This document shows, in pieces, positions 14,169 to 37,916 of a stretch of 64,000 nt of DNA; position 1 is the first letter of the stretch, and every line of letters begins with the position of its first letter. The position numbers and the translations under genes are program-made. The stretch is taken from contig DASXDM010000013.1 in assembly GCA_036490655.1 (NCBI GenBank), forward strand, positions 67,582-131,581. Reading direction: 5' to 3'. The stretch is from Verrucomicrobiia bacterium (GTDB lineage Bacteria; Verrucomicrobiota; Verrucomicrobiia; Limisphaerales; UBA11358). The notes below the pieces were generated by a model. It was not told the DNA's origin, searched no databases, and saw only the letters and a list, made by a program, of their open reading frames with translations.

Positions 14169-15283
14169 AAGCAAAGCACCCGTTTTCCCTGTTGTGCGAA
14201 CTGACTTATCGTTGTCCATTACAATGTCCCTATTGCAGCAACCCGCTGGATTTTGCGCGCTACCGGGAGGAACTCACCACGGATGAATGGAAGCGGGTCC
14301 ATGACGAAGCGGCGGCGCTGGGGGTGGTGCAGGTCCATTACTCGGGTGGCGAACCACTGGTGCGGACCGATATCGGGGCCATCATCCAACATGCGCACAA
14401 ACTGGGACTCTATACCAATCTGAGCACCGGCGGCACGTTGTTGAATGAGAAATTGGCCGGGCAATTGCGCGAGGCCGGCCTGGATAATTTGCAGATCAGC
14501 ATCCAGGACGCGGACGCGGAAAACTCAGACCGCATGGCCGGGGGAGCGCCGTCTTTTGAAAAAAAGATACGCGCAGCCCGACTGGTGAAGGAGCGGGGAT
14601 TTCCGTTGACGCTAAATGTGGTGTTGCACCGCCAGAACATCGGGCGCATTGAAAGCATCGTGGCCTTGGCGGAAGAACTGGGGGCGGAACGATTGGAACT
14701 GGCGAACACGCAATTCAACGGGTGGGCCCTCAAAAATCGCGCCACGTTATTGCCGTTGCGGACACAGGTCGAGTGGGCGGCAGAGATCGTCGGCGCAGCG
14801 CAACGGCGGCTCAAAGGCCGCATGGAAATCCTTTATGTGTTGCCCGATTATTTTGAGCAATATCCCAAGCCCTGCCTCCACGGGTGGGGGAATGTTTTTA
14901 TGACCGTTGCGGCGGACGGGCTGGTGCTGCCCTGTCAAACGGCCCGCGAAATCCGCGGAATGACATTTCCGAATTGCCGGGACCATTCCCTGTCGGAAAT
15001 CTGGTTTGAATCGGAAGCGTTTTGCAAGTTTCGCGGCACGGATTGGCTTCCTGAGCCGTGCCAGAGTTGTTCGCGCAAAGAAAAGGATTTTGGCGGCTGC
15101 CGGTGCCAGGCCTTTTTATTGACCGGCAAGGCGGAGGTCACTGATCCAGTGTGTTCCTTATCGCCACAACACCACCTGGTGAGCGAGGCGCTGGCCGAAG
15201 CGGGTTCAGCGCCTGCGGGTGAATTGATCTATCGGAGCCACGGCGAATCATTGGAGAAATTTTGTTCGGAAGACAGTCCGTAG
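14165..15283 (+). CDS. pqqE: radical SAM/SPASM enzyme PqqE
   Basis: 372 aa. CPLQCPYCSN CxxxCxxC motif and a C-terminal Cys-rich SPASM region. ATGA overlap with pqqD. Confidence 0.95.
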   Translation: MKAKHPFSLLCELTYRCPLQCPYCSNPLDFARYREELTTDEWKRVHDEAAALGVVQVHYSGGEPLVRTDIGAIIQHAHKLGLYTNLSTGGTLLNEKLAGQLREAGLDNLQISIQDADAENSDRMAGGAPSFEKKIRAARLVKERGFPLTLNVVLHRQNIGRIESIVALAEELGAERLELANTQFNGWALKNRATLLPLRTQVEWAAEIVGAAQRRLKGRMEILYVLPDYFEQYPKPCLHGWGNVFMTVAADGLVLPCQTAREIRGMTFPNCRDHSLSEIWFESEAFCKFRGTDWLPEPCQSCSRKEKDFGGCRCQAFLLTGKAEVTDPVCSLSPQHHLVSEALAEAGSAPAGELIYRSHGESLEKFCSEDSP

Positions 15284-15310
15284 GCGGTCAATGGCCAACT
15301 ATTTCAAGGC

Positions 15311-16189
15311 ATGAAAATACGCATTCTCGGTTCGGCGGCAGGCGGAGGGGTTCCCCAATGGAACTGCCAGTGTCCAAATTGCCGCGCTGCCCGAAAATCC
15401 AAAGCGTTTCGCACCCAATCCTCCGCGGCAGTTTCCGATAATGGAAAAGACTGGGTGTTGCTCAACGCCTCGCCCGATCTGCCGGTTCAATTCGCCTCGT
15501 TTCCTCCACTGTCAGCCTGTGGCGGGCAATTGCGCGGGAGCGCCATGGCGGCGGTGGTGCTCACCGATGGGGAGATGGACCACGTTGCCGGCTTGCTCTC
15601 GCTCCGCGAACAAAAATCACTGCGCGTGATTTGCACTCGCGCCGTCAAGCGGTTGCTGACGGCGGATTTTCCATTGTTGCCCTGCCTGGAAAGCTATTGC
15701 CGGATCCGTCATTCGAGTTTTCCCGTTCAAATCGCAGGAATCCGGATTTCTGCGCTGGAGCTAAAGACTGAAAAGTCCCCGCGCTATTCCCCTGGCCGCG
15801 CCCGATCCGGTGAAGTCGCCGGACTACGCCTTGAAAGTGTCCGCACAGGACGCACCTGTATCTATCTTCCCGGACTGCCGGCCATCACAAAAAAATTGAA
15901 CGACTGGTTGGCGGGATGCGATTGCCTGATTGTCGACGGCACATTTTGGTCCGAGCGGGAAATGATCGTGTGCGGTCTTTCCAAACGCACGGCGCGCGAC
16001 ATGGGACATGTTCCCATCCACGGCGCAGGCGGCAGCCTGGAATGGTTGCGGATCGTGAAGGTTCCCCGGAAAATTTATACCCATATCAATAATTCAAACC
16101 CAATCTTACGGAAGGGGCAGCCCGAACGACGGGCGATCGAAAAGGCTGGAATCGAGATCTCTGACGATGGGATGGAGATCTGTTTATGA
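15311..16189 (+). CDS. pqqB: PQQ biosynthesis protein PqqB (metallo-beta-lactamase fold)
   Basis: 292 aa. N-terminus MKIRILGSAAGGGVPQWNCQCPNCRAAR is typical of PqqB. Confidence 0.9.
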   Translation: MKIRILGSAAGGGVPQWNCQCPNCRAARKSKAFRTQSSAAVSDNGKDWVLLNASPDLPVQFASFPPLSACGGQLRGSAMAAVVLTDGEMDHVAGLLSLREQKSLRVICTRAVKRLLTADFPLLPCLESYCRIRHSSFPVQIAGIRISALELKTEKSPRYSPGRARSGEVAGLRLESVRTGRTCIYLPGLPAITKKLNDWLAGCDCLIVDGTFWSEREMIVCGLSKRTARDMGHVPIHGAGGSLEWLRIVKVPRKIYTHINNSNPILRKGQPERRAIEKAGIEISDDGMEICL

Positions 16190-16371: not shown

Positions 16372-17679
16372 TTGCCAACGTGTCTCACTATGCCAAATCA
16401 ACTTGAAACCAACGTCCCGCCGGCAGCAGAAGACGGCGCGATCACCGGACTCCAATGGAAATGGACCGCGCTGGCGGGGATGGCGTCCTATTTGGATGCC
16501 GGCTCGATCGTGGCGCTCGGCGCCGGACTGGCTTTATTCCAAAATGAGCTTCACCTGAGCAGCGGAGCCGTCGGGGCGCTGGCGGCGATCGGGCCCAACG
16601 CCATCGGCTGCGCGCTGGGGGCGTTCATCGGCGGCCGATTGGGCGACAAACTGGGACGCAAAACGATTTATCAATATGATCTGCTCATTTATGCGGCCGG
16701 CATCCTGGGCATTGCGCTGGCGGTGAATGCGACGATGCTTTTCATCGGCACATTTGTGGTGGGCGTGGCGGTCGGCGCTGATGTGCCCACTTCGCTGGCG
16801 CTCGTGGGTGAACTGGCGCCGGCGCGGGGGCGGGGCAAGTTACTGGGTTTCACCCAAGTAACCTGGTGCCTGGGGCCGGCCATCGTCTTATGGCTGGCGC
16901 TGTTGCTGGCGCCATTGGGGCTGCTCGGCATACGGATCATTTTTCTGCACTTGTTTGTCGTAGCGCTGGTCACGTGGGCGTTAAGACGAGGACTATCGGA
17001 ATCGGTCCGCTGGACGGCGGCGGCGAGGTCCACCCCGATCCCGAACAAAGTGCGGACGCTCTTTTCAGGGGCCAATCTGCGGGCGCTGGTGTGGACGGCG
17101 ACGATCTATCTCTTTTGGAATCTCGCCGCCGGCACGGCGGGAATTTTCAATCCATACTTCATCAAAACCCTGCACGCCGGCAGCCAGGCGGCCAGCGTGG
17201 GAATGTACAGCTCGGCATTTGTGATCGCGATGATCGTGGCGGTGACCGTGTTCATGCCTTTATCCGATCGCAGTTTCCGAACGAGGAAATGGTTGTGGGG
17301 CATCGGCGCGGTGATGCAGATATTCGCATATGGATTGTTCCTGGTGGCGCCTTTTACCATCCCGACGATCATCACGAACATCGTCATGTTTGCCGCCGGG
17401 GGCGTGCTGGCCGGCGAGGCCTTTTACAAAGTATTCAGCCAGGAATTGTTTCCCACGCTATTGCGGGGAACGGCCCAGGGCATCACTTTTGGGGTGGCGA
17501 GGACATTGTTGGGGATATGGAGTTTCTTTGTGCCGATGCTGGCCAACGCGGGGATCCGTCCAATCGCCGCCCTGCTGACTTTGTTCCTGGTCATCAGCGG
17601 CGGGGTGGGATTTTTTTTCATGCCGGACACTTCGGGCAAGACGCTTGAACAAATTGAAAGCGAGCGCGCCGGTAAATGA
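16372..17679 (+). CDS. MFS transporter (sugar-porter-like)
   Basis: 435 aa with about 12 TM segments. GRLGDKLGRKTIY loop motif. An alternative start at 16390 is possible. Confidence 0.85.
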   Translation: MPTCLTMPNQLETNVPPAAEDGAITGLQWKWTALAGMASYLDAGSIVALGAGLALFQNELHLSSGAVGALAAIGPNAIGCALGAFIGGRLGDKLGRKTIYQYDLLIYAAGILGIALAVNATMLFIGTFVVGVAVGADVPTSLALVGELAPARGRGKLLGFTQVTWCLGPAIVLWLALLLAPLGLLGIRIIFLHLFVVALVTWALRRGLSESVRWTAAARSTPIPNKVRTLFSGANLRALVWTATIYLFWNLAAGTAGIFNPYFIKTLHAGSQAASVGMYSSAFVIAMIVAVTVFMPLSDRSFRTRKWLWGIGAVMQIFAYGLFLVAPFTIPTIITNIVMFAAGGVLAGEAFYKVFSQELFPTLLRGTAQGITFGVARTLLGIWSFFVPMLANAGIRPIAALLTLFLVISGGVGFFFMPDTSGKTLEQIESERAGK

Positions 17680-20426
17680 ATTTTTCCGGCTTGAGCGAAC
17701 CCACCAAAATTTCGCGGCTGCGCTGCGAATATCTTTTTGCCCCACTGGGCATAGATGAGCGCGCGCCGCGTTTAAGTTGGACAATCGAATCCAATCGCCG
17801 CGGGGCGCACCAGACCGCTTATCGCATCCGCGTGGCGAGCACGCCGGAAAAGCTCGCCGCCGGAGAAGGGGACCGGTGGGATTCCGGCCGCATCGAAAGC
17901 GACCAGACTACGCATATTGCCTATGCCGGCAAACTGCTGCGGTCACGCGACGTGGGTCATTGGCTGGTCGAAATTTGGGACGAGACGGGCAAATCGGCAA
18001 CTTCGGAGAGGTCGCATTGGACGATGGGTTTGCTGGATAAATCCGATTGGCCGGCGAAATGGATCGCCGCCGAACCGGAAATCATCAAGCGGGACAAGGA
18101 AGCGACGGCGCCAACGTTAATTGAACCCGGGACACCGGCACTCTTTCGCAAGGAATTCGACGTGCCCGGCCCAATCAAGCGCGCAACAATTTATGCCAGC
18201 GCGCGAGGGGTATTCGAATTGCGCGCGAACGGCGAGCGGATCGGCGAAGATATCTTTGCGCCCGAGTGGACGGATTATGACAAGCGCATTCACTATCGGG
18301 CCTATGAGGTCACGAAGATGCTCACGCAGGGTCGCAACGCGCTGGCGGCCACACTGGGCGACGGCTGGTGGAGCGGCTATGTCGGCTGGCAGGAGACACG
18401 CGCCCGATATGGTTCGCTGGAAAACAGCCTGTTGGTCCAACTGGAAGTTGAACTGGTTGACGGCAAACGGCTGACGCTTGTCACGGACGGCTCATGGAGG
18501 TGCAATACGGGACCGATTCTCGCCTCGGATTTCATGATGGGCGAAACTTACGACGCCCGTCGCGAGCACAAAGGTTGGGATGCCGCCAATTTCCCCGGCC
18601 AGGACTGGTTGCCCGCCCGCGAAGTCGCTGCACCCACGGTGCCATTGGTCGCCCAGCGTTCCGAGCCGGTGAAGGTAGTGGAAAAAATCACGCCGGTTTC
18701 GGTCAATGAAATCCGCCCGGGTGTTTTCATCTATGATCTCTCCCAGAATATCGCCGGTTGGGTTCGTTTGCGCATCAACGCGCCGGCAGGCACGCGCGTG
18801 ACGCTCCGGCATGGCGAACGATTAAATCCTGACGGCACGCTTTATACCGAAAACCTTCGTCGCGCCAGGGCCACCGATGTTTATATCTGCAAAGGCGGCG
18901 GCGCGGAAATCTACGAACCTCATTTTACTTTTCACGGCTTCCAATATATCGAACTCACCGGCCTGCCATCCGCGCCGGGCAAGGAGGCGGTCACCGGCTG
19001 TGTCGTCCGCTCCGCCACGGCGGACGCGGGGAAGTTTGAGTGTTCTCATGCGGGCGTGAACCGGCTTTGGCAGAACGGCCTCTGGTCGCAGCGCGATAAT
19101 TTTCTTTCCGTGCCGACTGATTGCCCGCAGCGCGACGAGCGCCTGGGCTGGATGGGCGATGCGCAGGTTTTCCTCCGCACGGCCAGTTACAACATGGATG
19201 TCGCCGCATTCTTTACCAAATGGATGGTGGACGTGGAAGATGCGCAGACTGCCGACGGCATTTTTCCAGATACGGCGCCGCGCCTGCGTGAAGGGGACAA
19301 TTTTATCGGGCTGGGGGGACTGGGCGGTTCGGCCGGTTGGGCTGATGCGGGCGTCATCATTCCGTGGACTCTTTGGCGTGTTTATGGCGACAAGCGGATC
19401 GTTGAACGTCATTGGAAGGCGATGACCGCCTGGCTTGATTGGATTGAACGCCATAATCCCACCGGCTTGCGCGTGAATCAACTGGGCAACAATTACGGCG
19501 ACTGGCTGTGCATCCCCGGCGATACGACATTCGGCACCCATTCACCGATGAAGAATTTGCTGGCGACCGCCTATTGGGCGGATGACGCCGCAAAGATGTC
19601 CCGCCTGGCGCGCGAACTTGGCCGCGAGGCAGAGGCCGGCCGTTTTCAGGCGATGTTCGAGAAAATTCGCGCCGCCTTCCAGAAGGAATGGTTGCGGGCG
19701 GACGGCAAGCTGGCCGTCGAGACGCAGACCGCCTATCTGCTGGCGCTCGCGTTCAATCTGCTCCCGGATAATGCGCGCGATCGCGCTGCCGATCAACTGG
19801 TCGAAAACATCCGCGCGCTTGACTGGCACTTGAGCACCGGTTTCATCGGCATCAGCCATCTCAATCCCACGCTCACGCTGGCCGGCCACACTGATGTGGC
19901 TTACCGGCTGTTGCTGCGCGAGGATTATCCGTCGTGGCTGTATCCGGTGAAGCATGGCGCGACCACGATCTGGGAGCGCTGGAACGGCTGGACGGAAGCG
20001 GAAGGGTTCTTCGTGCCGCAAATGAATTCGTTCAACCATTATTCGCTTGGCTCGGTCGGGGAATGGTTGTTTCGCCATGTGGCGGGCATCGAACTCGATC
20101 CGGACGCCGCCGGTTTCCAGAAGTTTATTTTACGTCCGTTCATCGGCAACGGCCTTGATTTCGCCCGCGCCAGCTATCGCACCATGCATGGAGAGATCGC
20201 CAGCGAATGGAATCGCTCCGGTGAAAAAATCACCTGGTCGATTCGCATCCCGGCGAACACAACAGCCCGTGTTTATGTACCGAGCAGGCAAGAAACAGCC
20301 GTGACCGAGGGGGGCGTGCCCGTTGAAAAAGCCGCCGGCCTCCGCGTGATCGGGCGTGATGGAAATTTTTTAGTCTGCGAGGCGCAGTCGGGGGCATATG
20401 CCTTTGTCTCGACGTGGCAGAATTGA
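17676..20426 (+). CDS. glycoside hydrolase family 78 alpha-L-rhamnosidase, no signal peptide (likely cytoplasmic)
   Basis: 916 aa. RLRCEYLFAPLGIDERAPRLSW...HQTAYRIRVAS and DCPQRDERLGWMGDAQVF. ATGA overlap with the MFS stop. Confidence 0.9.
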   Translation: MNFSGLSEPTKISRLRCEYLFAPLGIDERAPRLSWTIESNRRGAHQTAYRIRVASTPEKLAAGEGDRWDSGRIESDQTTHIAYAGKLLRSRDVGHWLVEIWDETGKSATSERSHWTMGLLDKSDWPAKWIAAEPEIIKRDKEATAPTLIEPGTPALFRKEFDVPGPIKRATIYASARGVFELRANGERIGEDIFAPEWTDYDKRIHYRAYEVTKMLTQGRNALAATLGDGWWSGYVGWQETRARYGSLENSLLVQLEVELVDGKRLTLVTDGSWRCNTGPILASDFMMGETYDARREHKGWDAANFPGQDWLPAREVAAPTVPLVAQRSEPVKVVEKITPVSVNEIRPGVFIYDLSQNIAGWVRLRINAPAGTRVTLRHGERLNPDGTLYTENLRRARATDVYICKGGGAEIYEPHFTFHGFQYIELTGLPSAPGKEAVTGCVVRSATADAGKFECSHAGVNRLWQNGLWSQRDNFLSVPTDCPQRDERLGWMGDAQVFLRTASYNMDVAAFFTKWMVDVEDAQTADGIFPDTAPRLREGDNFIGLGGLGGSAGWADAGVIIPWTLWRVYGDKRIVERHWKAMTAWLDWIERHNPTGLRVNQLGNNYGDWLCIPGDTTFGTHSPMKNLLATAYWADDAAKMSRLARELGREAEAGRFQAMFEKIRAAFQKEWLRADGKLAVETQTAYLLALAFNLLPDNARDRAADQLVENIRALDWHLSTGFIGISHLNPTLTLAGHTDVAYRLLLREDYPSWLYPVKHGATTIWERWNGWTEAEGFFVPQMNSFNHYSLGSVGEWLFRHVAGIELDPDAAGFQKFILRPFIGNGLDFARASYRTMHGEIASEWNRSGEKITWSIRIPANTTARVYVPSRQETAVTEGGVPVEKAAGLRVIGRDGNFLVCEAQSGAYAFVSTWQN

Positions 20427-22040: not shown

Positions 22041-23237
22041 TCAAGGTTCAGATGTCACGGGGCGTTTTCGCCAGTAGTTGGCCAGCACGGAGCCGCTGAC
22101 GTTCATCCACGGGCTGAAAATCGCCGCGGCAAGCCCCATCGTCCCCAGTTTGCCCGCGGCGCCGGCGATGCCGGACGCCATGCCACCGTTTTGAATCCCG
22201 ACTTCAAAGGCAACCGAGCGCGCGGAATTTTTGTCCAGTCCGGCCGCGCGCGCCAGCCAATAGCCAAGCGTGTAACCGGCGGTGTTGTGCAGCACCGCGA
22301 CCAAAAAAAGGAGCGCGCCGACGTGCAACAGATTGTCACGCCCCGCCGCCGTGGTCACCGCCGTGAAATAAACGATGCCGGCCATGGAAAGCCGGGGAAT
22401 GCGCGCATCCAGTTTTGGGAATCGCAAGGTGAGCTGATGATAAACGACGCCAAATAAGATTGCGCCGAACAGGTAGCCGCTGATGCCGGCGACGGTCAAC
22501 CCGGTGGCGGTCCAGTTGGATTGAATCCATACCCAGCCTCCGAGCGCGAGAAAGGCCAACCAGAGCGCGGCCACCGCCGCCAGGGCGAAGACGATCTTCC
22601 ATCCGCGTTTCCCGGCAAATTTTAGATAATCGTGGAGCATCGCCGCGCCGACCGGCACCAGCACGATTTTGACGATTTCAAGCATCATGGCGACCAGCTT
22701 CACCTCGACGAGGGTGCCGGCGAGCAATTTCATCCAGAGCGGTGTCAGCACCACCGCCAAAACGGTGGTCACCGCGGTGATCGTCACTGAGAGCGCGAGA
22801 TTGGATTTGGCGAGATACGCCATGACGTTCGAGGCCAGGCCGCTGGAGCATGAGCCGATGAGGATGACGCCGGCGGCGATCTCCGGCTCGAAATGGAAAA
22901 TTTTTATCAGCGCCCAGCCAACGAGCGGCATCACCGTGAACCGGCACAGCACGCCGACGAAGACGCCGCGCGGCGATTTGATGACGCCTGCGAAATCGCG
23001 CAGGCTCATCTGCGTGCCCATGCCGAACATCACCAACTGGACCACGGTGAGGATGAGCCATGGGCTGCGCAGATCGAAGTTGCCGACGTGCAGGAATTGA
23101 GCCGGATAAAGCATGGCCGCTGTGACCGCGACGACGATCCAGGTGGTGAACTGGTAGCCGCGAAAGTTTCTCGTGAAACGCAGGGCGAGCGCGAGCGCGA
23201 CCGTCAAAAGAACCAGGGCTGGTTGCCAAAGATTCAT
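22041..23237 (-). CDS. bile acid:Na+ symporter (BASS/SBF) family organic-anion transporter
   Basis: 398 aa polytopic protein. GVILIGSCSSGLASNVMAYLAKSNLALSVTITAVTT matches the BASS signature region. Confidence 0.75.
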   Translation of the reverse strand: MNLWQPALVLLTVALALALRFTRNFRGYQFTTWIVVAVTAAMLYPAQFLHVGNFDLRSPWLILTVVQLVMFGMGTQMSLRDFAGVIKSPRGVFVGVLCRFTVMPLVGWALIKIFHFEPEIAAGVILIGSCSSGLASNVMAYLAKSNLALSVTITAVTTVLAVVLTPLWMKLLAGTLVEVKLVAMMLEIVKIVLVPVGAAMLHDYLKFAGKRGWKIVFALAAVAALWLAFLALGGWVWIQSNWTATGLTVAGISGYLFGAILFGVVYHQLTLRFPKLDARIPRLSMAGIVYFTAVTTAAGRDNLLHVGALLFLVAVLHNTAGYTLGYWLARAAGLDKNSARSVAFEVGIQNGGMASGIAGAAGKLGTMGLAAAIFSPWMNVSGSVLANYWRKRPVTSEP

Positions 23238-23896
23238 TTCAAAACTGTCGCCAGGTAATCCACCGCGATGCCGGGACTGGCAAAAATCGGAACACGCCGG
23301 TCTTCCGGCGCGAGGGCGTCCACGACGCGCGCCATCGAGGCCTGGGCCAGCACGATAACTTCCACCTGCTTCGATAATTCTCTCAACGCGGCGGCGACCC
23401 TGGCGTCATGCGTCGCGCCGTCGCCACTCATCAAGGCTTCAAACGCGCCTTCGCAAAGCTTCGAGGTGAGTTCAATTTTCTTTCCCGCTTTGGCCGCGCG
23501 GCGCGAAATCAAATCCGCCGTGGGTTCGAGCGTGGTTGAGAGCGTGGCGAGGACGCCGATTTTTTTGCCGGTGGCCACGGCTTTATCCGCCATCGGTTGG
23601 TCGACGCGCAGGACCGGCACGCCGATGGACTTTGCCCCCGCCTCGACCGCCGGGCCGACGGAGGAGCAGGTGACCAGGATGTAATCCGCGCCCGCGAGTT
23701 CGGCGGATTTCAGGTAGCTTTCCACGCGGCCCGAGATCTGCGGCGTCAAACTGCCTGCTTCGCGGATGCCTTTCACGAGCGAATCATCGGCGATGTTGAA
23801 CACTTCCACATCCGGCAGCTTGTCTTTGCAAAGCTGCGCGAACACCGGGACCAATGTCGCGGAGGTGTGAACCAATCCGAGTCGTTTCTTTTTCAT
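23234..23896 (-). CDS. Asp/Glu/hydantoin racemase superfamily protein (single-Cys variant)
   Basis: 220 aa. First catalytic-site motif YILVTCSSVG (Cys77). At the position of the second Cys motif it reads VIVLAQASMA. 4-nt overlaps with both neighbouring genes. Confidence 0.7.
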   Translation of the reverse strand: MKKKRLGLVHTSATLVPVFAQLCKDKLPDVEVFNIADDSLVKGIREAGSLTPQISGRVESYLKSAELAGADYILVTCSSVGPAVEAGAKSIGVPVLRVDQPMADKAVATGKKIGVLATLSTTLEPTADLISRRAAKAGKKIELTSKLCEGAFEALMSGDGATHDARVAAALRELSKQVEVIVLAQASMARVVDALAPEDRRVPIFASPGIAVDYLATVLK

Positions 23897-25248
23897 AATT
23901 TTCCTCTCAAGGCAGTTTCAAAATAATTTTTCGCGCCGACCTGGCCGCCTTTGAAAACCACTTCCGATCCATCCGCGGGGGAGCCGGGTGCGAAAACCCG
24001 GCACAGCGGCGCGCCCGGCGTCAGGGGCGCAATCATTTCCAGCGCCTCAATGCCCAACGCCCGCGCGGCATAACTTGATGTGTCACCCCCGGCGAGACAG
24101 ACACGACGAACCGGATGCAGTTCGATCGCCCGACGCAGCACTTTGCCGAGCGCGGAGCCCAGCACTTCTGCGGTGCGACCTTTATATTTGGCGGTGATGC
24201 GATGATCCGGGCCGCTTCGGGTCGTATGGATGATGACGTTACGATTCATCCGCAGAAGTTTTGCGGCTTCGGCGGCGGCGCGTTGGATTTCGCGGACGGC
24301 CATGGTCTTGTTCATCAAACGCGCCGCATTCAAAGGCACTTCCGCAAACCCATGTTTCAACGCCCAGGCGATCTGCCCGCTGGTGACCGGTGAACAACTG
24401 CCTGAACCCACAAGAATCTGTTTGGAGCGAGTGGAGAAGTTTGGCAGGTTCCAATTTTTTTGGAGGGGGATCCGACTCATCGATCTCCAATGCGTGGCCA
24501 GGGCCGCTTCAATCCCCGAGGACCCGACCGAGAAAAGCGTTCGTTGTTTGCCTGCGATTTCTTCAAGCAATCCGCCGATGCGCGCGAGGTGTTCGGTCGT
24601 CAGCGCATCGAATAAAACGACCTGCGGTTTATCGGCCAATAATTGCTGGAAAGCGACCCGGGCTTGTTGGGGGGGTAACGTTAACTTGAGAAGATCAAAC
24701 AATGCGGCGCGCTTCTTTGTTTGTTTAGCGAGATGTGCGAGGAGATCCGCTTCGGTCATCGGCGTCACCGGATGCCGGCTGATGGAGGGATGCCGATCCA
24801 GCCGATGGATGGCGCCGGTGCTGCCGATGCCATAGCGCGCAAAGTGCTGGCCAAAGATCGTGTAACGGCCCAGCGCCGGGGCGGCGGCCAGCAGCGGTAT
24901 GAACGGCGCGGGAAAAATTTTCGCCGCCACCTCCATCACGCGGCCGATGCTGCCGATCGCGGGCGAGGAATCGAAGGTGGAACAGATTTTGTAGTGAACA
25001 TGGCGCGCGCCGAGTTTTTTCAAAGCCCGCAACGCCGGTTTAAGCTCACGCTCCATCGCCTGCGGAGCGAGTGAGCGGGTTTTGCCGGCAACACCAAGGG
25101 CTTGCAGGCCGGGGATTTTTTTTAACTGCGCAGGCGTCGGCGGCCGGATGAACAACCTCGTGCGGAGACCGGCCAGGGTCAGTTGTTCCAGCGCATCCGT
25201 CGAGCCGGTGAAGTCATCGCCGTAGAAGGTGAGGAGAAGCTTGTTCAT
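23893..25248 (-). CDS. four-carbon acid-sugar kinase family protein (DUF1537)
   Basis: 451 aa. N-terminal YGDDFTGSTDALEQL and C-terminal GGDTSSYAARALG nucleotide-binding region. Confidence 0.85.
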   Translation of the reverse strand: MNKLLLTFYGDDFTGSTDALEQLTLAGLRTRLFIRPPTPAQLKKIPGLQALGVAGKTRSLAPQAMERELKPALRALKKLGARHVHYKICSTFDSSPAIGSIGRVMEVAAKIFPAPFIPLLAAAPALGRYTIFGQHFARYGIGSTGAIHRLDRHPSISRHPVTPMTEADLLAHLAKQTKKRAALFDLLKLTLPPQQARVAFQQLLADKPQVVLFDALTTEHLARIGGLLEEIAGKQRTLFSVGSSGIEAALATHWRSMSRIPLQKNWNLPNFSTRSKQILVGSGSCSPVTSGQIAWALKHGFAEVPLNAARLMNKTMAVREIQRAAAEAAKLLRMNRNVIIHTTRSGPDHRITAKYKGRTAEVLGSALGKVLRRAIELHPVRRVCLAGGDTSSYAARALGIEALEMIAPLTPGAPLCRVFAPGSPADGSEVVFKGGQVGAKNYFETALRGKL

Positions 25249-26495
25249 CCGCCTTGGTTGCCGAATTTCTCCAGCGACTTTTTGAGTTCAGGATATTTCG
25301 CCACGGCTTGTTCCAGGGCCAACCCTTCGGTGGCGGCTTCCCACCATTTTTGCAGGGAGCGTACCCCGGCGGACGGGCCGTCCGGATGCGCCATGATGCC
25401 GCCGCCCGCCATGTAAAGCAGGTCAACGGTTTTCGTGCGCCGATAGGTTTCACAGGCCTGCCCACCCCATTGGCCGGAAGAAACGACGGGCAAGACCGAC
25501 ATCCCGCCCAGCAGCGGGCGGGCACAGGCTTCGATGGAACGGACCACGGAATCATCGCTTTCCCAAAATTTGTTAGCGATGCCATTGACGTGGATCTGGT
25601 CAACACCCGCCAGCCGCCAAAGTTTTTGATAGGCCGGAAATTCGATGCCGAGGAGCGGATGCCGGTTCAACATGCCCCAGCCGTTGCGATGACCATGGAT
25701 CGCCAGCGCGCCGGGATCGCAAATTTTCTTCGCACCGCCCAGGCCGACGCTGTTCAACGAGATCATCGCGCAGGTGCCACCGGATTTCACAACCTTCTCG
25801 TAATGCCGTTGCATCGCGTCAAGTTCGTCGCTGACGTTGAAGGCATACATGACTTTTTTGCCGGTGCGTTCGGCATGAGCATTGATGACGCGCATGATGG
25901 CGTCCACACGTTCGTCAAAGGGCGAGTGGGGTGGGTTCGCCATCAATTCGTCATCCTTGATAAAATCGATGCCCGCTTCGGCGAGGGTCTTGACCAGTGC
26001 CGCGGTCTGTTCGGGAGACAGGCCGATGCTTGGTTTGATGATGGTGCCGATGAGGGGACGATTTTGCGCGCCAGTCAACTTGCGGCAGCCGGCGACCCCG
26101 AATTTCGGCCCGCGGAAATGGCTGGCATATGACAGAGGAAATTCCAAGTCCATCAATTTCAGGCCGGAAAACTGGGAAAGCTCATAAAGATTTCCCTGCA
26201 CCGTGGAGACCAGTGCGGGAAGGTTGGACCCGAAATTTTCCACCGACCACGAAACGACTATTTCCGCGCGCTGAAATTTGCTGCCGGCCTGGCGGACGCC
26301 GGGCAAAGACGGTTCGCTCACGACTTCGAGCGGCGTGATCTTTTCGACGCGCGCGGCGAAGCGTTGTTTAAGCTCGGCTGTTTCGCCGGGAACCTCCACG
26401 AAGGTCCCGGAAGATTGCTCACCCGCCAAAACGGCGGCGGCTTTTTCCACCGCCATCGGTGTTTCGATCCGGTATGTGGCGAACAGGCGTTCCAT
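25245..26495 (-). CDS. RuBisCO large-subunit-like protein (form IV RLP)
   Basis: 416 aa. GTIIKPSIGLSPEQ (KPS instead of KPK), GIDFIKDDE (KDDE carbamate/metal motif), LAIHGHRNG, GGGIMAHPDG. No small subunit or PRK nearby. Confidence 0.85.
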   Translation of the reverse strand: MERLFATYRIETPMAVEKAAAVLAGEQSSGTFVEVPGETAELKQRFAARVEKITPLEVVSEPSLPGVRQAGSKFQRAEIVVSWSVENFGSNLPALVSTVQGNLYELSQFSGLKLMDLEFPLSYASHFRGPKFGVAGCRKLTGAQNRPLIGTIIKPSIGLSPEQTAALVKTLAEAGIDFIKDDELMANPPHSPFDERVDAIMRVINAHAERTGKKVMYAFNVSDELDAMQRHYEKVVKSGGTCAMISLNSVGLGGAKKICDPGALAIHGHRNGWGMLNRHPLLGIEFPAYQKLWRLAGVDQIHVNGIANKFWESDDSVVRSIEACARPLLGGMSVLPVVSSGQWGGQACETYRRTKTVDLLYMAGGGIMAHPDGPSAGVRSLQKWWEAATEGLALEQAVAKYPELKKSLEKFGNQGG

Positions 26496-26526: not shown

Positions 26527-29988
<3,462 letters not shown>

Positions 29989-30001: not shown

Positions 30002-30859
30002 ATGAGCCCGTTAATCACCAAACGTCTGCCGATGCTGCTCTTCGTTTTATCCATCGCGGCAGGCGCACAGGGCCAAAATCAGATGCTTTCTCCCGGTCCG
30101 GGCCGTTGGACCAACAGCCTGGGCATGATTTTTGTACCGGTACCCGGCACGCAGGCACGGTTTTCCATCTACGAAACGCGGGTGAAGGATTTTGAAGTAT
30201 TTGCGGCGTCCAAACCGAAGTTGGACGGCACAAATTGGGACCACGCGTTCTATCACGGAACCACTCCGGTCTCAACCGCAGGCGATGATCCGGTCATCGA
30301 TGTCAGTTGGAACGATGCCACAAATTTTTGTGATTGGCTGACCGGGATGGAACAGAAGTCCGGGAAAATCTCCACCAATGAATCCTATCGCCTGCCGACC
30401 GATGACGAGTGGAGCGATGCGGTGGGGATCGGCGGCCGGGAGACGGGCGCAACGCCAAAGGAAAAGAGCGCCAAACTCAAAGAGGTTTATCCGTGGGGAA
30501 CCCAATTTCCACCGCCGCCCCATGCGGGAAATTTTGCCGACCAGGCGGCACTGGATTATTTCACCAATTGGCCGCACATCACGAATTACGACGATGGTTA
30601 CGTGACGACTGCGCCGGCCGGCAGTTTTAACGCGAATCAATCCGGCATCTACGATCTCTCCGGCAACGCGATGGAATGGTGCGGGGATTTTTATGATGCT
30701 TCGCACAAGCAGCGGGTGTTGCGCGGCGGCGCATGGATCAATTGCGGGCCCAAGACGCTCCTGTCATCTTATCGCGAACACGTTTCCCCGGAACGGTCCA
30801 GTGTGGCGACCGGATTTCGCTGCGTCCTGGACGGGCAAACGGCGCCGGTGGAGAAATAA
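30002..30859 (+). CDS. formylglycine-generating-enzyme (SUMF1/FGE-sulfatase) domain protein
   Basis: 285 aa with a signal peptide. RLPTDDEWSDA, GNAMEWCGDFYD, RVLRGGAW, GFRCV. Confidence 0.85.
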   Translation: MSPLITKRLPMLLFVLSIAAGAQGQNQMLSPGPGRWTNSLGMIFVPVPGTQARFSIYETRVKDFEVFAASKPKLDGTNWDHAFYHGTTPVSTAGDDPVIDVSWNDATNFCDWLTGMEQKSGKISTNESYRLPTDDEWSDAVGIGGRETGATPKEKSAKLKEVYPWGTQFPPPPHAGNFADQAALDYFTNWPHITNYDDGYVTTAPAGSFNANQSGIYDLSGNAMEWCGDFYDASHKQRVLRGGAWINCGPKTLLSSYREHVSPERSSVATGFRCVLDGQTAPVEK

Positions 30860-30869
30860 AAAAATCTTT

Positions 30870-32018
30870 ATGAACAAAATCACGAAAAATTTTCTGAATC
30901 ATTGCGCCATCCTTTTGGGCGCAGTGGCCGCGCTGACGCACCCGTCCAATATGTATGCCGAGACGAACATGGTGAGCGATTCCAGGATCATTGATACGAA
31001 TACGCTCGCGCAATGGTCCGCGCCATTTCGCAACTGGCATTATTGGCCGACCCACGTCATTCCCGCAGTCCCGCCGTTGCCGGGCGCGACGAACATCCTG
31101 GGTACGGACATCGCCACCGTGTTCCAAATCCCCGGCGATGACAAATGGTACATGAGTTTTGTCGGCTACGATGGCAGCGGGTACCAAACGTACATCGCGG
31201 AAAGCACGAACCTGGTCGATTGGGGAAATTATCAACTGGCGATGGGTTACGGCCCGACGAATGAATTCGACCAGGGCGGCGTCACGCTCGGCGGGTTTTT
31301 GTTGCAATCGTACGACCTGAAAGCGCCGCGTCTGTTGCAGCGGCGTGATGGGAAATATTGGTCGATGTACGGGTCCTATTCGAAGCGGGGCGGCTATGAA
31401 CAGCATCCCATCGGGGAAGGTTTGGCGATGAGCGACGACGGTTTGCATTGGCAACCGGCGCTCACCAATCCGGTGGTGTCACTCGCCGACCCGGATACCG
31501 CCCAATGGGAAAGCAACCGCATCTATCAGCCCTGGCTTCTGGAATATCGCGGACGCTTTTTTGATTTTTACAATGCCGCATATAAGAGCCATGAGCAAAG
31601 CGGGGTCGCCTTTTCAACCGATCTGACCAACTGGATCCGTTATCCAGGCAACCCGATCATCCATAATCGTCCGGGCGGTTACGATGCCGGCTTTTGTTCC
31701 GATCCCAAGGTGTATCGCGATGGCGATCACTGGACGATGTTCTATTTTGGCGTGGGCCACGGCGGCGCGCACATCATGATCGCTTTTTCCCGCGACCTGG
31801 TAAATTGGACGCCGGATCCCGCTCCGCTTTACAAGTCAGGGGGAAATCCGAGCGGTTTGGACAAGCAGTATGCGCATAAGACCACGCTGGTGTATAATCC
31901 GAAGAACGACACGTTTTATATGTTCTACTGCGCGACGCCCGGCAAAAAAGGCTCCATCACCGGCGGGCGCGGCATCGGGTTGATCACGAGCAAACCATTG
32001 GATCCGCATCAGGAATAA
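30870..32018 (+). CDS. five-bladed beta-propeller glycoside-hydrolase-like protein (GH43/GH130-type)
   Basis: Start taken at MNKITKNF (signal peptide), because the 30693 extension overlaps the previous gene. Repeated blade motifs: DKWYMSFVGYDG, DGKYWSMYGSY, GLAMSDDGLHW, RGRFFDFYNA, GDHWTMFYFG, AFSRDLVNW. Confidence 0.65.
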   Translation: MNKITKNFLNHCAILLGAVAALTHPSNMYAETNMVSDSRIIDTNTLAQWSAPFRNWHYWPTHVIPAVPPLPGATNILGTDIATVFQIPGDDKWYMSFVGYDGSGYQTYIAESTNLVDWGNYQLAMGYGPTNEFDQGGVTLGGFLLQSYDLKAPRLLQRRDGKYWSMYGSYSKRGGYEQHPIGEGLAMSDDGLHWQPALTNPVVSLADPDTAQWESNRIYQPWLLEYRGRFFDFYNAAYKSHEQSGVAFSTDLTNWIRYPGNPIIHNRPGGYDAGFCSDPKVYRDGDHWTMFYFGVGHGGAHIMIAFSRDLVNWTPDPAPLYKSGGNPSGLDKQYAHKTTLVYNPKNDTFYMFYCATPGKKGSITGGRGIGLITSKPLDPHQE

Positions 32019-32983
32019 CTTTGCCGGCGCGTGCCGAATTTGTCGGCGGCGACCGCGGCAAGGATCACGAAGCCCTTGATGACCTGTTGCCAGAACGGCG
32101 AGATGTCGAGCAGGAACAGGCCGTTGTTCAAAACGCCGATGATGAGGCAGCCGAGCACGGTGCCCAAGATCGAACCCTCCCCGCCGCTCAACGAGGTTCC
32201 GCCGATGACGACGGCGGCGATGGAATCGAGTTCATATCCCTCACCGGCTTTGGGGTCGGCGGCGTCAAGCCGCGCAGTCACGATCAATCCGCCGATGGCC
32301 GCGAGCGCGCCGGTCAACGCATAGACCCAAAGCTTGATGCGATCGACGTTGATGCCGGAGAACGCCGCGGCCTTTTCACTGCCGCCCACGGCATAGATGT
32401 AGCGGCCAAGAATGGTGCGGCGGGTGACGAGATAAAAGAAGGCGACCAGCGCCGCTGAAATCCATACGGCCATGGGAATGCCCAGGAAAAATCCCGCGCC
32501 CATGAAATCGAATTTTGTTCCCAGATCGGTCACGGGAAATCCTCCGGTCCACAGCATGGTCAAACCGCGCGCGATGCTCAACATTCCGAGGGTGGCGACA
32601 AACGGAGGCAGGCGAAATTTGGTGATGACCAACCCGTTGAACCAGCCGAGCACAAAGCCGGCAAGGATTCCCGCAAGGACCGCCCCGAAGACGGTGAATT
32701 GCACGGCCAGCCCGAACCGGCCCAGGATGATCCCATTTTTGAGCAGGCCCGCGGCAAATGCGCCCGCAAAGGCAAGGATGGCGCCGACGGATAGATCGAT
32801 GCCGCCGGTGAGGATCACCAGCGTCATGCCGAGGGACAGGCAAAGGTTCACGGAGATCTGCAGGAGGATGTTACGCCCGTTGGCGAACGTCAGGAATTTG
32901 TCCGACATCAGGCTCAACACGAGGACCATGACCACGAGCGCGACGAGCGGCTGAAGTTTTTTGATGATTTCCTTTTTGTTCAT
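32009..32983 (-). CDS. sugar ABC transporter permease (RbsC/AraH family)
   Basis: 324 aa with about 10 TM segments. LTGGIDLSVGAILAFAG motif. Confidence 0.9.
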   Translation of the reverse strand: MNKKEIIKKLQPLVALVVMVLVLSLMSDKFLTFANGRNILLQISVNLCLSLGMTLVILTGGIDLSVGAILAFAGAFAAGLLKNGIILGRFGLAVQFTVFGAVLAGILAGFVLGWFNGLVITKFRLPPFVATLGMLSIARGLTMLWTGGFPVTDLGTKFDFMGAGFFLGIPMAVWISAALVAFFYLVTRRTILGRYIYAVGGSEKAAAFSGINVDRIKLWVYALTGALAAIGGLIVTARLDAADPKAGEGYELDSIAAVVIGGTSLSGGEGSILGTVLGCLIIGVLNNGLFLLDISPFWQQVIKGFVILAAVAADKFGTRRQSYS

Positions 32984-33612
32984 GGGGTGAGCGTTTGGAT
33001 CGGGATCACCTTCAATGGTTTCAGGTCGGTGGACTCATCATCCACCTCGGCGCAGCCGGCGAAGGAAATGGTTTCGCCGGGCTTTGCCTGGCCGCGCAGT
33101 TGGGGAATCACATTCGTCTCAACGATCCGGTCGAGGGCGGCTGAGAGATCGTTGAAATCCTGGGAATTGGGATAATCGTTCACGTTCAACAAACCTGTGC
33201 CGTCGCGGAGCGCGTCGCCGAAGACCAGGCCGGTTTCCAGGGCAACTTCCGCGTTGGTCGAATCTTTTGAGATCGCCAGGGAAATCTCATCGTCCGAAAT
33301 GGAGACAACTTTTCCATCGCCCCGCAGAAAATAATAATAATTTTCATCCAGCCCGAGGCTCCGGGAATATTTCTTCTTCGCCGCCGGGGGATCGTTTTGG
33401 ATCGCGGACAAAAGTTCCCGGGCGGGGACGGCTTTATCGAGCGATGGCAACAAACGGTTCGTCCAGAAAGTTCCGGCGAATCGCGTGGTGTCAAAAGCTT
33501 TCGCTTTTTGTTCCGCCGCAGCGGTCTTGAGCGGCACGAGATGAAACGGCGGGAAAAGACCGCAAACGGCGGCAGCGACTGCGATCGCGATGATCCAGGT
33601 GACGGCGCGCAT
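32980..33612 (-). CDS. DUF2291-type periplasmic lipoprotein associated with sugar ABC systems
   Basis: 210 aa. N-terminal anchor. FDTTRFAGTFWTNRLLPSL and VNDYPNSQDFNDLSAAL resemble DUF2291. 4-nt overlap with the permease start. Confidence 0.65.
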   Translation of the reverse strand: MRAVTWIIAIAVAAAVCGLFPPFHLVPLKTAAAEQKAKAFDTTRFAGTFWTNRLLPSLDKAVPARELLSAIQNDPPAAKKKYSRSLGLDENYYYFLRGDGKVVSISDDEISLAISKDSTNAEVALETGLVFGDALRDGTGLLNVNDYPNSQDFNDLSAALDRIVETNVIPQLRGQAKPGETISFAGCAEVDDESTDLKPLKVIPIQTLTP

Positions 33613-33618
33613 CAGAAA

Positions 33619-34572
33619 TTATTTCTTCCCGTAATCGGAATATTTGGCCACGTTGGCCTGGGTCACCAGCTCGACGGGCACGGGAATTTTTTGCGGGAAA
33701 TCACGCTTGCCCTTGAGGTAGGCATCGGCGAATTCAGCGGACTTGCGCGCCATGACTTTGGGAAACTGCATCCCCGTCGCCTCGATTTTTCCCTGGGCGA
33801 TCAATTTCACAACATCGTCCGCACCGTCGAACCCGAAGACCTTCACCTGCCGGTCTTTGCCGGTGGCGACCAGGGCCTGATACGCACCCATCGCCATCGC
33901 ATCGTTGCCGCAAAAAACGGCTTTGATGTCCGGATGCGCCTGCAAGATCGAGGTCATGACATCGAGTCCTTTGGCGCGGTCAAAATCCGCGCTTTGCTGC
34001 GCAACCATTTTCAAACCGGGAAAGCGGTCCACCACGCTGTGAAAGCCTTTCGAACGGTTCCAGGTATTGTTGTCACCGACGATGCCGAGCAGTTCGGCAT
34101 ATTCGCCCTGCTGACCGACGGTCTTGATGAAATATTCGCCGATCTTTACCGAGCCGGAATAACTGTCCGACAGCATCTGCGAGGTGGCGGCGTTCGTGGA
34201 ATTGATCTCTCGATCGATGCAGAAAACAGGAATGCCCGCGGCTTTGGCCTTCAAAACATTCGCCACCGACCCGTTGGCATCCGTGGGGTTGAACAGGATC
34301 GCCTGGTAACCGGCGGCGATGAGGTCGTCAAAATTGGCGGCTTCCTTCGCCGTATCATTCTGCGAATCAAAAATCGTGGCGTCATAGCCCAGTTCGTCCG
34401 CGCGATCTTTGGCGGTTTGCGCCAGCACGACAAACCACGGATTATTGAGAGTGGAGATGACCACGGCGATTTTTTGTTTTGGCGCGGATTGCGCGTTCAC
34501 GGTCCGGGTGAACAGCAAGGCGACCGTCGCGATCAGAACGGCGCCGGCCAATTTGAGCCAATGGGTTTTCAT
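33619..34572 (-). CDS. sugar ABC transporter substrate-binding protein (RbsB-like, PBP type I)
   Basis: 317 aa with a signal peptide. [31 protein letters not shown]. Confidence 0.9.
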
Positions 34573-34595
34573 ATGTTTTCTTAGTTTGATTTGAC

Positions 34596-37899: not shown

Positions 37900-37916
37900 G
37901 GATGATCCAAAGGGAA

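Follow-up and report, generated by a model that had tools for sequence, protein, structure and literature searches.

A conserved cassette of a RuBisCO-like protein, DUF1537 kinase, racemase-fold protein and BASS carrier as a candidate L-aceric acid pathway in Verrucomicrobiota and Bacteroidota

Gene layout of the cassette

The stretch of DNA analysed here (the window, 64,000 nucleotides of contig DASXDM010000013.1 from a Verrucomicrobiia bacterium of the Limisphaerales, assembly GCA_036490655.1) carries a four-gene cassette encoding a RuBisCO-like protein (RLP), a DUF1537 kinase, a protein of the Asp/Glu-racemase fold and a BASS carrier. A LacZ-type glycoside hydrolase (GH) of family 2 is encoded just upstream. 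We propose that the cassette may serve the breakdown of L-aceric acid, a sugar of the plant polysaccharide rhamnogalacturonan II (RG-II). The five genes, in the order of their transcription, are the following.

26527-29868, minus strand: LacZ-type GH2 beta-galactosidase gene (Pfam GH2 domains; the JGI gene call starts at 29754)
25245-26495, minus strand: RLP gene, 416 amino acids (aa) (Pfam RuBisCO_large_N and RuBisCO_large)
23893-25248, minus strand: DUF1537 kinase gene, 451 aa (open reading frame (ORF) with Pfam SBD_N and NBD_C)
23234-23896, minus strand: Asp/Glu-racemase-fold gene, 220 aa (ORF with Pfam Asp_Glu_race)
22041-23237, minus strand: BASS carrier gene, 398 aa (ORF with Pfam SBF)

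All five ORFs are co-directional, the gap from the GH2 gene to the RLP gene is 31 nt, and ATGA stop/start overlaps couple the cassette's three junctions (25245-25248, 23893-23896 and 23234-23237). A first-pass annotation, made from the letters of this DNA alone, had described four minus-strand genes coupled by 4-nt overlaps and lying 31 nt downstream of a LacZ-type GH2. The ORF coordinates and junctions are exactly as it claimed, the gap was measured, the GH2 domains were confirmed by Pfam, and so was each of the four families that it had assigned. It had also stated that no RuBisCO small subunit or phosphoribulokinase is present, and neither was found among the window ORFs annotated, which are only part of those in the 64 kb. 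Promoter and terminator scans of the window gave match counts no higher than the shuffled expectation.

Recurrence of the cassette across genomes

With the racemase-fold protein as query and one genome per species scanned, 80 loci were retrieved. The cassette was counted by tblastn, since the greedy ORF caller loses genes of high-GC loci to spurious opposite-strand ORFs. The order RLP, kinase, racemase-fold gene and BASS gene, on one strand and within 5.5 kb, was found in 66/80 species-level loci; the remainder comprises three loci with all four genes, eight cut by contig ends and three with real gaps. The kinase gene comes immediately after the RLP gene in 66 of the 80, and the BASS gene closes the cassette in 79. 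Among metagenome loci retrieved via the RLP, the complete cassette was present in 33 of the 35 with enough downstream sequence, the exceptions being RLPs with low-complexity insertions beside a glycosidase. The pairing of racemase-fold protein and BASS carrier, which the first-pass annotation had singled out, is thus a near-obligate part of the cassette in both sets.

The hosts are Verrucomicrobiota (Limisphaerales and Opitutaceae) and Bacteroidota (Niastella, Niabella, Ferruginibacter, Lacibacter, Pedobacter, Mucilaginibacter, Runella, Spirosoma, Pontibacter, Arcicella and Echinicola), and Fodinibius (Balneolota) also carries the cassette. Cassette-bearing isolates include Niastella populi, Niabella spp., Pedobacter aquatilis and Runella zeae. 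On a Rufibacter tibetensis plasmid the cassette adjoins GH28, pectinesterase and polysaccharide lyase genes. Some contigs with near-identical cassettes (83-87% identity; L011, P0025 and P0101 in our numbering of loci) are labelled Bifidobacterium, Acidoferrales or Sulfotelmatobacter; these labels are probably binning errors and not true hosts.

RLPs paired with DUF1537 kinases are already associated with another plant sugar: according to what Carter et al. (2018, Nat Chem Biol) are said to have described, such pairs act on 3-oxo-isoapionate-4-phosphate in D-apionate catabolism, with OiaC and OiaX as the RLPs. The apionate clusters of that study reportedly also carry an oxidoisomerase, a dehydrogenase and a lactonase. 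An ApnO (PGDH_C-like) gene in the context of an apiose ABC system is present in Rhizobium, Labrenzia and Haloterrigena, and this context is not seen in the window. By tblastn, an ApnO homologue was found neither in the window nor in 160 related loci, so that the absence of this partner noted earlier holds well beyond the window. The conserved core contains no apiose dehydrogenase or lactonase, although the dehydrogenase was not systematically searched and no lactonase query was used; a Gfo/Idh/MocA oxidoreductase with just 20-26% identity to the enzyme of the rhizobial apiose cluster is encoded in 17/53 Bacteroidota loci. The cassette is a genuine, conserved arrangement that differs from the characterised apionate systems.

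The RuBisCO-like protein

The motifs IIKPSIGLS, GIDFIKDDE and GGGIMAHPDG were all found in the RLP, in agreement with the initial description of a protein that keeps the KDDE motif and GGGIMAHPDG and reads KPS instead of KPK. Residues K180, D182 and E183 align with K201, D203 and E204 of the RuBisCO carbamate/metal motif. The protein belongs to form IV of the RuBisCO superfamily, with PF02788 and PF00016 both above their cut-offs. Its best NCBIfam model is NF042437 (3-oxo-isoapionate-4-phosphate RLP), where it scores 518 bits against an equivalog cut-off of 700 and so does not reach it. The form III RuBisCO model gave 231 bits against a cut-off of 497, and the match to MtnW was also weak and far below its cut-off. 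The nearest solved structure is PDB 3NWR, an RLP of Burkholderia fungorum (428 bits), which has the KP[S/N], KDDE, HxHRNG and GGGI motifs in common with the window RLP but stands outside the clade described next, at 42-50% identity in the multiple alignment.

In a neighbour-joining tree, the full-length RLPs encoded together with the racemase-fold gene (n=59) make up a single compact, monophyletic clade, with a minimum pairwise identity of 63% and a median of 74%. The Rhizobium RLPs, named by PGAP from NF042437, are 45-51% identical to this clade, and those of Labrenzia and Haloterrigena, whose genes adjoin ApnO-like genes and an apiose-type ABC system, share 47-53% identity with it. In the tree, then, the window RLP lies within the apionate-type superclade but in neither of the groups found in ApnO contexts. 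The expectation that it would fall outside the known isofunctional groups is borne out by the score below the NF042437 cut-off and by the separate clade.

Residues are numbered after spinach RbcL, and the motif register agrees with this reference. All 59 clade members retain E60, T65, N123, K175, K201, D203, E204, H294 and R295, as well as H327, K334, S379 and G403/G404, and all 59 carry K177S and H298W. A CO2-fixing RuBisCO of forms I-III is thereby not indicated: K177 is serine in 59/59 and the form model cut-off is not reached. The Rhizobium-type RLP, which the NCBIfam description calls a decarboxylase, has E60D, N123G, H327Q and S379G, whereas the Labrenzia/Haloterrigena group retains the RuBisCO residues, like the window clade. 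We take the gene symbols oiaC and oiaX to belong to the RLPs of A. radiobacter K84 and X. autotrophicus, respectively. Of the two characterised apionate RLPs, that of A. radiobacter K84 is a decarboxylase and that of X. autotrophicus a transcarboxylase/hydrolase (PMC6302742). By elimination, the residue-retaining group is probably of the transcarboxylase/hydrolase type; when the Labrenzia RLP was used as a database query, all matches bore generic names, and orthology to OiaC or OiaX was not confirmed.

A few further observations concern RLP genes and their names. The NCBIfam NF042437 and PGAP name "decarboxylase OiaX" (as in L085 8947-10242) conflicts with the assignments in PMC6302742, and caution is advisable wherever an annotation uses it. 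A few clade RLPs have low-complexity insertions of about 40-75 residues and are not accompanied by kinase, racemase-fold and BASS genes (L115 627-1988 and L120 2345-3823); in L120 the RLP is directly followed by the DUF2291 and permease genes of an apiose-like ABC system, an arrangement that suggests a deletion or an assembly artefact. On a Bradyrhizobium elkanii plasmid (L088 7968-15976), an RLP-kinase pair is accompanied by genes for a TRAP transporter, an SDR and a pyruvate kinase; ApnO and racemase-fold genes are both missing there.

The racemase-fold protein

The third gene product matches PF01177 with 74 bits (cut-off 31). Its AlphaFold2 model has a pLDDT of 84.6, and its best PDB matches by Foldseek are Asp/Glu racemases (probability 1.00); it also matches hydantoin and allantoin racemases and arylmalonate decarboxylase, with TM scores of just 0.6-0.75 and at most 21% identity. 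Members of this superfamily include aspartate, glutamate, hydantoin and allantoin racemases, arylmalonate decarboxylase and maleate isomerase. The window protein shares with them the fold, the ligand-binding loops and the first catalytic Cys at the N-terminus of the helix after strand 3, but it has Gln in place of the second Cys, and its partners are sugar-acid kinases, not amino-acid enzymes.

The protein contains three cysteines, of which Cys77 alone sits at a catalytic position and is invariant; in the alignment with the hydantoin racemase 2EQ5, the second catalytic Cys is replaced by Gln185, which is invariant too. It was accordingly correct to call this a single-Cys protein from its sequence. 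With one catalytic Cys and a TIGR00035 score of 24 bits against a cut-off of 93, it does not resemble a two-base amino-acid racemase. The residues H10, T11, D37, S39, C77, S78 and D99, together with T118, T121, T122, H163, D164, Q185 and S187, are invariant in 73 orthologues and in more distant homologues, and they define a single-Cys racemase-fold subfamily.

Homologues with 40-45% identity are encoded immediately upstream of a DUF1537 kinase and a class II fructose-bisphosphate-type aldolase on plasmids of Deinococcus taeanensis and Rhodococcus antarcticus. This recurrent partnership would suit an enzyme whose product offers the kinase a HOCH2-CO- terminus. The Deinococcus and Rhodococcus operons were also considered as a canonical tetronate pathway, a reading rejected because their kinases and oxidoreductases fail the OtnK and LtnD models; they support a general pairing of racemase-fold protein and DUF1537 kinase alone. 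Elsewhere, Deinococcus sp. QL22 has a racemase-fold and aldolase pair beside GH38 and GH2 genes, and Croceibacterium has a racemase-fold and MFS carrier pair beside a GH140-like gene. Cys77 and Gln185 are invariant throughout these operons and pairs (L091 6081-10052; L096 3584-7859; L095 6004-7574; L092 6992-8919).

The kinase and the carrier

The kinase is a member of the DUF1537 family, with SBD_N at 195 bits and NBD_C at 116 bits, both above their cut-offs. Its best NCBIfam model is that of OiaK (NF042436), at 425 bits against a cut-off of 700 that is not reached, and the OtnK (3-oxo-tetronate kinase) model gave 181 bits. It is 39% identical to the kinase adjoining the Rhizobium RLP, and its PDB relatives are 5DMH, 3DQQ and 1YZY.

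The carrier is of the BASS/SBF type (PF01758, 115 bits). It scores 202 bits with TIGR00841 (bass subfamily; cut-off 326) and 201 bits with the model of the PanS pantoate/ketopantoate transporter (cut-off 400), so that neither cut-off is reached. Because its nearest named relative transports pantoate and ketopantoate, both of them small hydroxy-acids with a branched skeleton, the import of aceric acid is plausible, and we propose that the protein is a Na+-coupled organic-anion carrier that imports it.

Enzymes of RG-II side chain B around the cassette

The neighbouring ORFs of the loci were clustered and the recurrent clusters annotated. The commonest neighbour (cluster c5) is a GH127 aceric acid hydrolase, all 37 members of which match NF049879 at E <= 1e-50. 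Eight of these GH127 proteins were scored singly: those of five Bacteroidota, of Fodinibius and of one Opitutaceae exceed the NF049879 cut-off of 950 (964-1185 bits). Two Verrucomicrobiota GH127 ORFs gave 357 and 460 bits and cover part of the NF049879 profile alone. The top PDB match of the cluster is 5MQO, which we take to be BT1003. GH127 is present in 34 of the 40 long Bacteroidota loci, and in 23/37 loci it ends less than 400 bp upstream of the RLP gene on the same strand.

A GH139 2-O-methyl-fucosidase also recurs (PDB 9HYQ, 844 bits; the structure of this GH139 is from PMC12282258), as do the GH137 region of BT0996, GH106, GH78-type, LacZ-type GH2 and GH88/105 enzymes and a SASA acetylesterase. 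In Verrucomicrobiota loci GH2, GH78, GH95 and GH140-like genes are common (GH78 in 9/27, GH95 in 6/27, GH140-like in 5). No aldolase recurs among the neighbour clusters, which were taken within 10 kb at the 80 loci. No GH143 Dha-hydrolase or Kdo-ase was recognised in the annotated neighbour clusters, these families not having been specifically searched.

Part of side chain B is Gal-beta-1,2-AceA-alpha-1,3-Rha-Api, with 2-O-Me-Fuc, Araf, Rha and acetyl groups, and the activities found in the neighbourhood (GH127, GH139, GH137, GH106/GH78, GH2 and acetylesterase) are those that dismantle it (PMC13501991, PMC11739564, bioRxiv 10.64898/2026.03.13.711244). The GH2 enzyme BT_0993 cleaves Gal-beta-1,2-aceric acid (PMC11739564), and aceric acid can be obtained from chain-B oligosaccharides using BT1003 (bioRxiv 10.64898/2026.03.13.711244). 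The RG-II degradome of B. thetaiotaomicron comprises BT1003 (GH127), BT0993 (GH2), BT0984 (GH139), BT0996 (GH137/GH2) and BT0986 (GH106) (PMC13501991, PMC11739564, PMC12282258). The same families of side-chain-B glycosidases flank the cassette, but the accounts of B. thetaiotaomicron that we consulted give no cytoplasmic route for the aceric acid that is freed; the cassette would supply one, and with it the missing aceric acid step in soil and freshwater Bacteroidota and Verrucomicrobiota.

A proposed route for aceric acid

L-Aceric acid is 3-C-carboxy-5-deoxy-L-xylose, a branched acidic sugar of RG-II side chain B with the structure CHO-CHOH-C(OH)(COOH)-CHOH-CH3. It has no primary hydroxyl, which leaves a DUF1537 kinase without a phosphorylation site, and its carboxylate-bearing carbon has no proton, which makes racemisation impossible. 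Chemical reasoning from this structure leaves an aldose-ketose shift as the sole proton transfer that would yield a DUF1537-type substrate from aceric acid. We therefore propose that the racemase-fold protein is an aceric acid aldose-ketose isomerase and that the kinase phosphorylates the primary hydroxyl that isomerisation creates.

The route would begin with exo-glycosidases (GH137, GH78/GH106, GH139, GH2 and GH127) and the acetylesterase, which would strip chain B and free aceric acid, whose anion would be taken in by the BASS carrier. The racemase-fold enzyme would then abstract the C2 proton beside the aldehyde and convert the aldose into the ketose 2,4-dihydroxy-2-(1-hydroxyethyl)-3-oxobutanoate, HOCH2-CO-C(OH)(COOH)-CH(OH)CH3, the only primary hydroxyl being made at this step. 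This ketose would be 3-oxo-isoapionate with CH(OH)CH3 replacing CH2OH, i.e., with one extra methyl. The OiaK-like DUF1537 kinase would act on the new hydroxyl, and the product would be a 2-carboxy-3-keto compound analogous to the six-carbon intermediate of RuBisCO, whose decarboxylation would yield the 5-deoxy, 5-dephospho analogue of the ribulose 1,5-bisphosphate enediolate. For the RLP we would prefer decarboxylation to this 2,3-enediolate followed by C2 re-carboxylation, hydration and C2-C3 cleavage to 3-phosphoglycerate and L-lactate, which would mirror the 3-oxo-isoapionate-4-phosphate transcarboxylase/hydrolase; L-lactate would be expected if the C4 configuration is kept, and the carbon would balance (6 = 3 + 3). 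This route is preferred because the residue set is retained and no aldolase recurs near the cassette. As a second choice, simple decarboxylation could yield a 5-deoxypentulose 1-phosphate, to be cleaved to dihydroxyacetone phosphate (DHAP) and acetaldehyde by an aldolase whose gene lies elsewhere. The exact chemistry of the isomerase and of the RLP is uncertain.

A substrate that is the methyl homologue of 3-oxo-isoapionate would explain why the kinase and the RLP are diverged relatives of OiaK and of the 3-oxo-isoapionate-4-phosphate RLP, why neither dehydrogenase nor oxidoisomerase is needed, and why there is one extra enzyme; scores below threshold and a separate clade are as expected for enzymes acting on so close a homologue. 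The first-pass annotation had suggested an acid sugar imported as the anion, isomerised, phosphorylated and then processed by the RLP, and this order stays the most economical reading. Each of its points that could be checked held, and neither of the outcomes that it had named as refuting was observed. Its suggestion of a new or variant substrate is in keeping with an RLP and a kinase below the apionate equivalog cut-offs and with the RLP's own clade. Among the candidates it named, aceric acid is favoured, because the cassette is flanked by genes for its hydrolase, GH127, and for further enzymes acting on side chain B; apionate is argued against.

That the cassette degrades an acidic sugar derived from RG-II is held with high confidence, and it is moderately likely that this sugar is aceric acid. 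A self-contained cytoplasmic L-aceric acid pathway, comprising import, isomerisation to a ketose, phosphorylation and conversion by the RLP, is suggested by gene content and sequence, and we hold it with a confidence a little better than even.

Other genes in the window

The carbohydrate-active enzymes of the window are two GH2, two GH78, and GH137-like, GH95 and GH141 proteins. The remaining features of note are listed here.

17676-20426, plus strand: GH78 alpha-L-rhamnosidase (Pfam Bac_rhamnosid6H and partner domains)
30870-32018, plus strand: GH137-like five-bladed propeller (NF049877 positions 43-351, 114 bits; start from the JGI gene call)
32009-39368, minus strand: apiose-like operon (ABC permease, DUF2291 protein, RbsB-like binding protein, FGGY kinase, split transketolase, Fucose_iso_C isomerase)
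41319-47994, plus strand: second acid-sugar set (SSF symporter, Fe-dependent alcohol dehydrogenase, DapA-like aldolase, PdxA-like dehydrogenase, DUF1537 kinase, AraC regulator)
50811-53147, plus strand: GH95 (Pfam Glyco_hydro_95_cat, 568 bits; the family is also present in L097 and is used on RG-II)
58252-60108, minus strand: GH141-like beta-helix protein (Pfam GH141_M, 181 bits; a family founded on an RG-II fucosidase)

The GH2 next to the cassette scores 954 bits with the NCBIfam model beta_gal_Bga2A, whose cut-off of 999 is not reached; its orthologues flanking the cassette elsewhere are 62-68% identical in other Verrucomicrobiota and 35% in Bacteroidota. This enzyme is a candidate for taking the capping galactose off aceric acid in chain B. 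The GH137-like protein resembles the N-terminal beta-L-arabinofuranosidase region of BT0996 and clusters with the c9 neighbour proteins, for which the NF049877 score is 527 bits.

Directly beyond the GH137-like gene lies the apiose-like operon, with the architecture of the E. coli SE15 D-apiose cluster aplK/aptA/aptB; its FGGY kinase and its binding protein each share 35% identity with the corresponding E. coli SE15 protein. Such an operon stands beside the cassette in L022, L023 and L120 as well. Apiose, the base sugar of chain B, thus seems from gene content to have its own route in the window, and a separate apiose route argues against the cassette being the apionate pathway. In the second acid-sugar set, the PdxA-like dehydrogenase scores 303 bits with the D-threonate-4-phosphate dehydrogenase model, and the second DUF1537 kinase is at 45988-47148; GH2 and GH95 genes come after this set.

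Three smaller features were noted in passing. A small FGE-sulfatase-domain protein is encoded at 30002-30859 on the plus strand, between the GH2 and the GH137-like gene, and the same Pfam FGE-sulfatase domain occurs directly upstream of the RLP in L099 (9269-9988) and L100 (7211-8128). Pyrroloquinoline quinone (PQQ) genes at 14165-16189 on the plus strand (pqqE 512 bits against a cut-off of 381, pqqB 348 against 245) are just upstream of an MFS transporter and the GH78. Finally, a second arabinose/fucose-isomerase-like protein at 56804-58243 on the minus strand adjoins the GH141-like gene and a GH78.

Weighing the readings

Several observations weigh against an aceric acid pathway as set out above. 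GH127 was found within 10 kb in just 3/20 long Verrucomicrobiota loci and was not found by tblastn in the window's 64 kb; because few Verrucomicrobiota loci carry it, the strongest GH127 link comes from Bacteroidota, whose RLPs are 63-75% identical. The clade RLPs of L115 and L120 stand without the other three cassette genes. Other homologues of the racemase-fold protein, 44-47% identical, lie in amino-acid or opine-like contexts, so that the subfamily is not uniform, and we know of no member of the Asp/Glu-racemase fold that acts as a sugar aldose-ketose isomerase. The choice between decarboxylase and transcarboxylase/hydrolase is uncertain, resting on which residues are kept and on the lack of a recurrent aldolase and not on OiaC or OiaX sequences. 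More generally, genomic association and residue conservation are what was observed, while the substrate would follow from context and chemistry and the chemistry of the steps from analogy.

With aceric acid kept as the substrate, the RLP could instead be an OiaC-like beta-keto-acid decarboxylase, a fuculose- or rhamnulose-phosphate-type aldolase encoded elsewhere then giving DHAP and acetaldehyde. NCBIfam describes the closest of its models as a decarboxylase, the decarboxylation of a beta-keto acid is chemically easy, and as degraders of rhamnose and fucose these bacteria probably have class II aldolases. Nevertheless, E60, N123, H327 and S379, which are lost in the decarboxylase-named Rhizobium type, are all kept in the clade, and no aldolase recurs within 10 kb across the 80 loci; we regard this division of labour as unlikely, though as a serious rival. 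The cassette might also be a variant D-apionate pathway, in which 3-oxo-isoapionate itself would be processed by kinase and RLP, and the racemase-fold protein would stand in for ApnO. OiaK and the 3-oxo-isoapionate-4-phosphate RLP are indeed the best NCBIfam matches, apiose occurs in the same polysaccharide, and GH140-like apiosidases are near the cassette in five Verrucomicrobiota loci. Yet both scores are far below the equivalog cut-offs, the clade is apart from the RLPs in ApnO contexts, and none of the 160 loci has an ApnO homologue. On general grounds, a cofactor-less racemase-fold protein is an implausible catalyst for the NAD-dependent oxidation and hydroxymethyl migration carried out by ApnO, and an operon with apiose-type ABC system, FGGY kinase and transketolase adjoins the cassette already, all of which makes an apionate variant improbable.

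The substrate could be some other acidic sugar, such as a tetruronate from Dha breakdown or a 2-oxo-tetronate. Its isomerisation would give a 3-oxo-acid, which would be phosphorylated, and decarboxylation by the RLP would then leave a triose or ketose phosphate. Such a route would agree with the racemase-fold homologues that pair with DUF1537 kinases and class II aldolases where RLP and RG-II enzymes are lacking, with the kinase's 181-bit match to 3-oxo-tetronate kinase, and with the many Verrucomicrobiota loci (most of them) that have no adjacent GH127. We consider it quite improbable, since the conserved core has no dehydrogenase or aldolase to generate a substrate of this kind, the annotated neighbour clusters (in which GH143 and Kdo-ase were not the object of a specific search) include neither of these enzymes, and the tight adjacency of GH127 in Bacteroidota would go unexplained. 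It is barely conceivable that a CO2-fixing RuBisCO or a methionine-salvage RLP lies among carbohydrate genes by chance. Nearly all RuBisCO catalytic residues are kept and there are weak form III and MtnW matches, but K177 is Ser in every clade member, the RuBisCO and MtnW cut-offs are missed by a wide margin, the annotated neighbours include no phosphoribulokinase, small subunit or mtn genes, and essentially every locus shows translational coupling of the RLP gene to that of an acid-sugar kinase. Both functions were rejected on the model scores and K177S.

Relation to known pathways and significance

The aceric acid pathway proposed here would be closest to the D-apionate system, with which it shares an RLP translationally coupled to a DUF1537 kinase, a branched-chain plant sugar from RG-II as the source, and a proposed substrate one methyl away from 3-oxo-isoapionate. 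It differs in that the RLP (45-53% identical) and the kinase (about 40% identical) score below threshold and the RLP stands in a separate clade, in that the cassette has no ApnO nearby and no conserved dehydrogenase (a lactonase was not searched), in that the ABC system with DUF2291 protein gives way to a racemase-fold enzyme and a BASS carrier, and in its host phyla and carbohydrate-active enzyme context. The tetronate pathway, reportedly described by Zhang et al. in 2016, offers a second comparison. It has four steps, catalysed by Ltn2D/Den2D, OtnI, 3OtnK and 3OtnC (summarised in PMC12994016). Like the proposed route, it involves an enediol-type isomerase that yields a 3-oxo-acid with CH2OH, a DUF1537 kinase, and C-C cleavage beside a ketone. 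However, the isomerase of the cassette has the racemase fold, while OtnI has a hydroxypyruvate-isomerase-like fold, and the cassette ends in an RLP, while the tetronate pathway ends in a decarboxylase of the class II aldolase fold. Unlike the tetronate pathway, the cassette would need no dehydrogenase, because its substrate is already an aldehyde.

An acid-sugar pathway of the RLP and DUF1537 kinase type is thus already known, and what is probably new here is the substrate and the isomerase. None of the four proteins has an equivalog model in NCBIfam (June 2026), and their PGAP names are generic. A full-text literature search returned neither a catabolic pathway for aceric acid nor a connection of RLPs with RG-II, nor any RLP-DUF1537 cassette of this kind. 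We suggest, tentatively and with rather less than even confidence, that the cassette is the first described L-aceric acid pathway, with RuBisCO-style carboxyl migration and hydrolysis to 3-phosphoglycerate and L-lactate and with the first aldose-ketose isomerase of the Asp/Glu-racemase fold, and that it is widespread in RG-II-degrading Verrucomicrobiota and Bacteroidota of soil and freshwater.

RG-II is the most complex plant polysaccharide, and its depolymerisation has been mapped enzyme by enzyme, while the fate of aceric acid after its release is undescribed in the literature that we found. A four-gene candidate makes this fate directly testable, since cultured Niastella, Niabella, Pedobacter, Runella and Echinicola carry the cassette. 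In soil metagenomes, these genes under the label "ribulose-bisphosphate carboxylase large chain" could pass for a sign of autotrophy. If the proposal is true, the single-Cys racemase branch that is repeatedly paired with DUF1537 kinases would gain its first function. A new reaction would likewise join the short list of RLP functions, as the third RLP chemistry for a plant branched-chain sugar, and an RLP that keeps nearly the whole RuBisCO active site while serving such a pathway would bear on the evolution of carboxylation chemistry.

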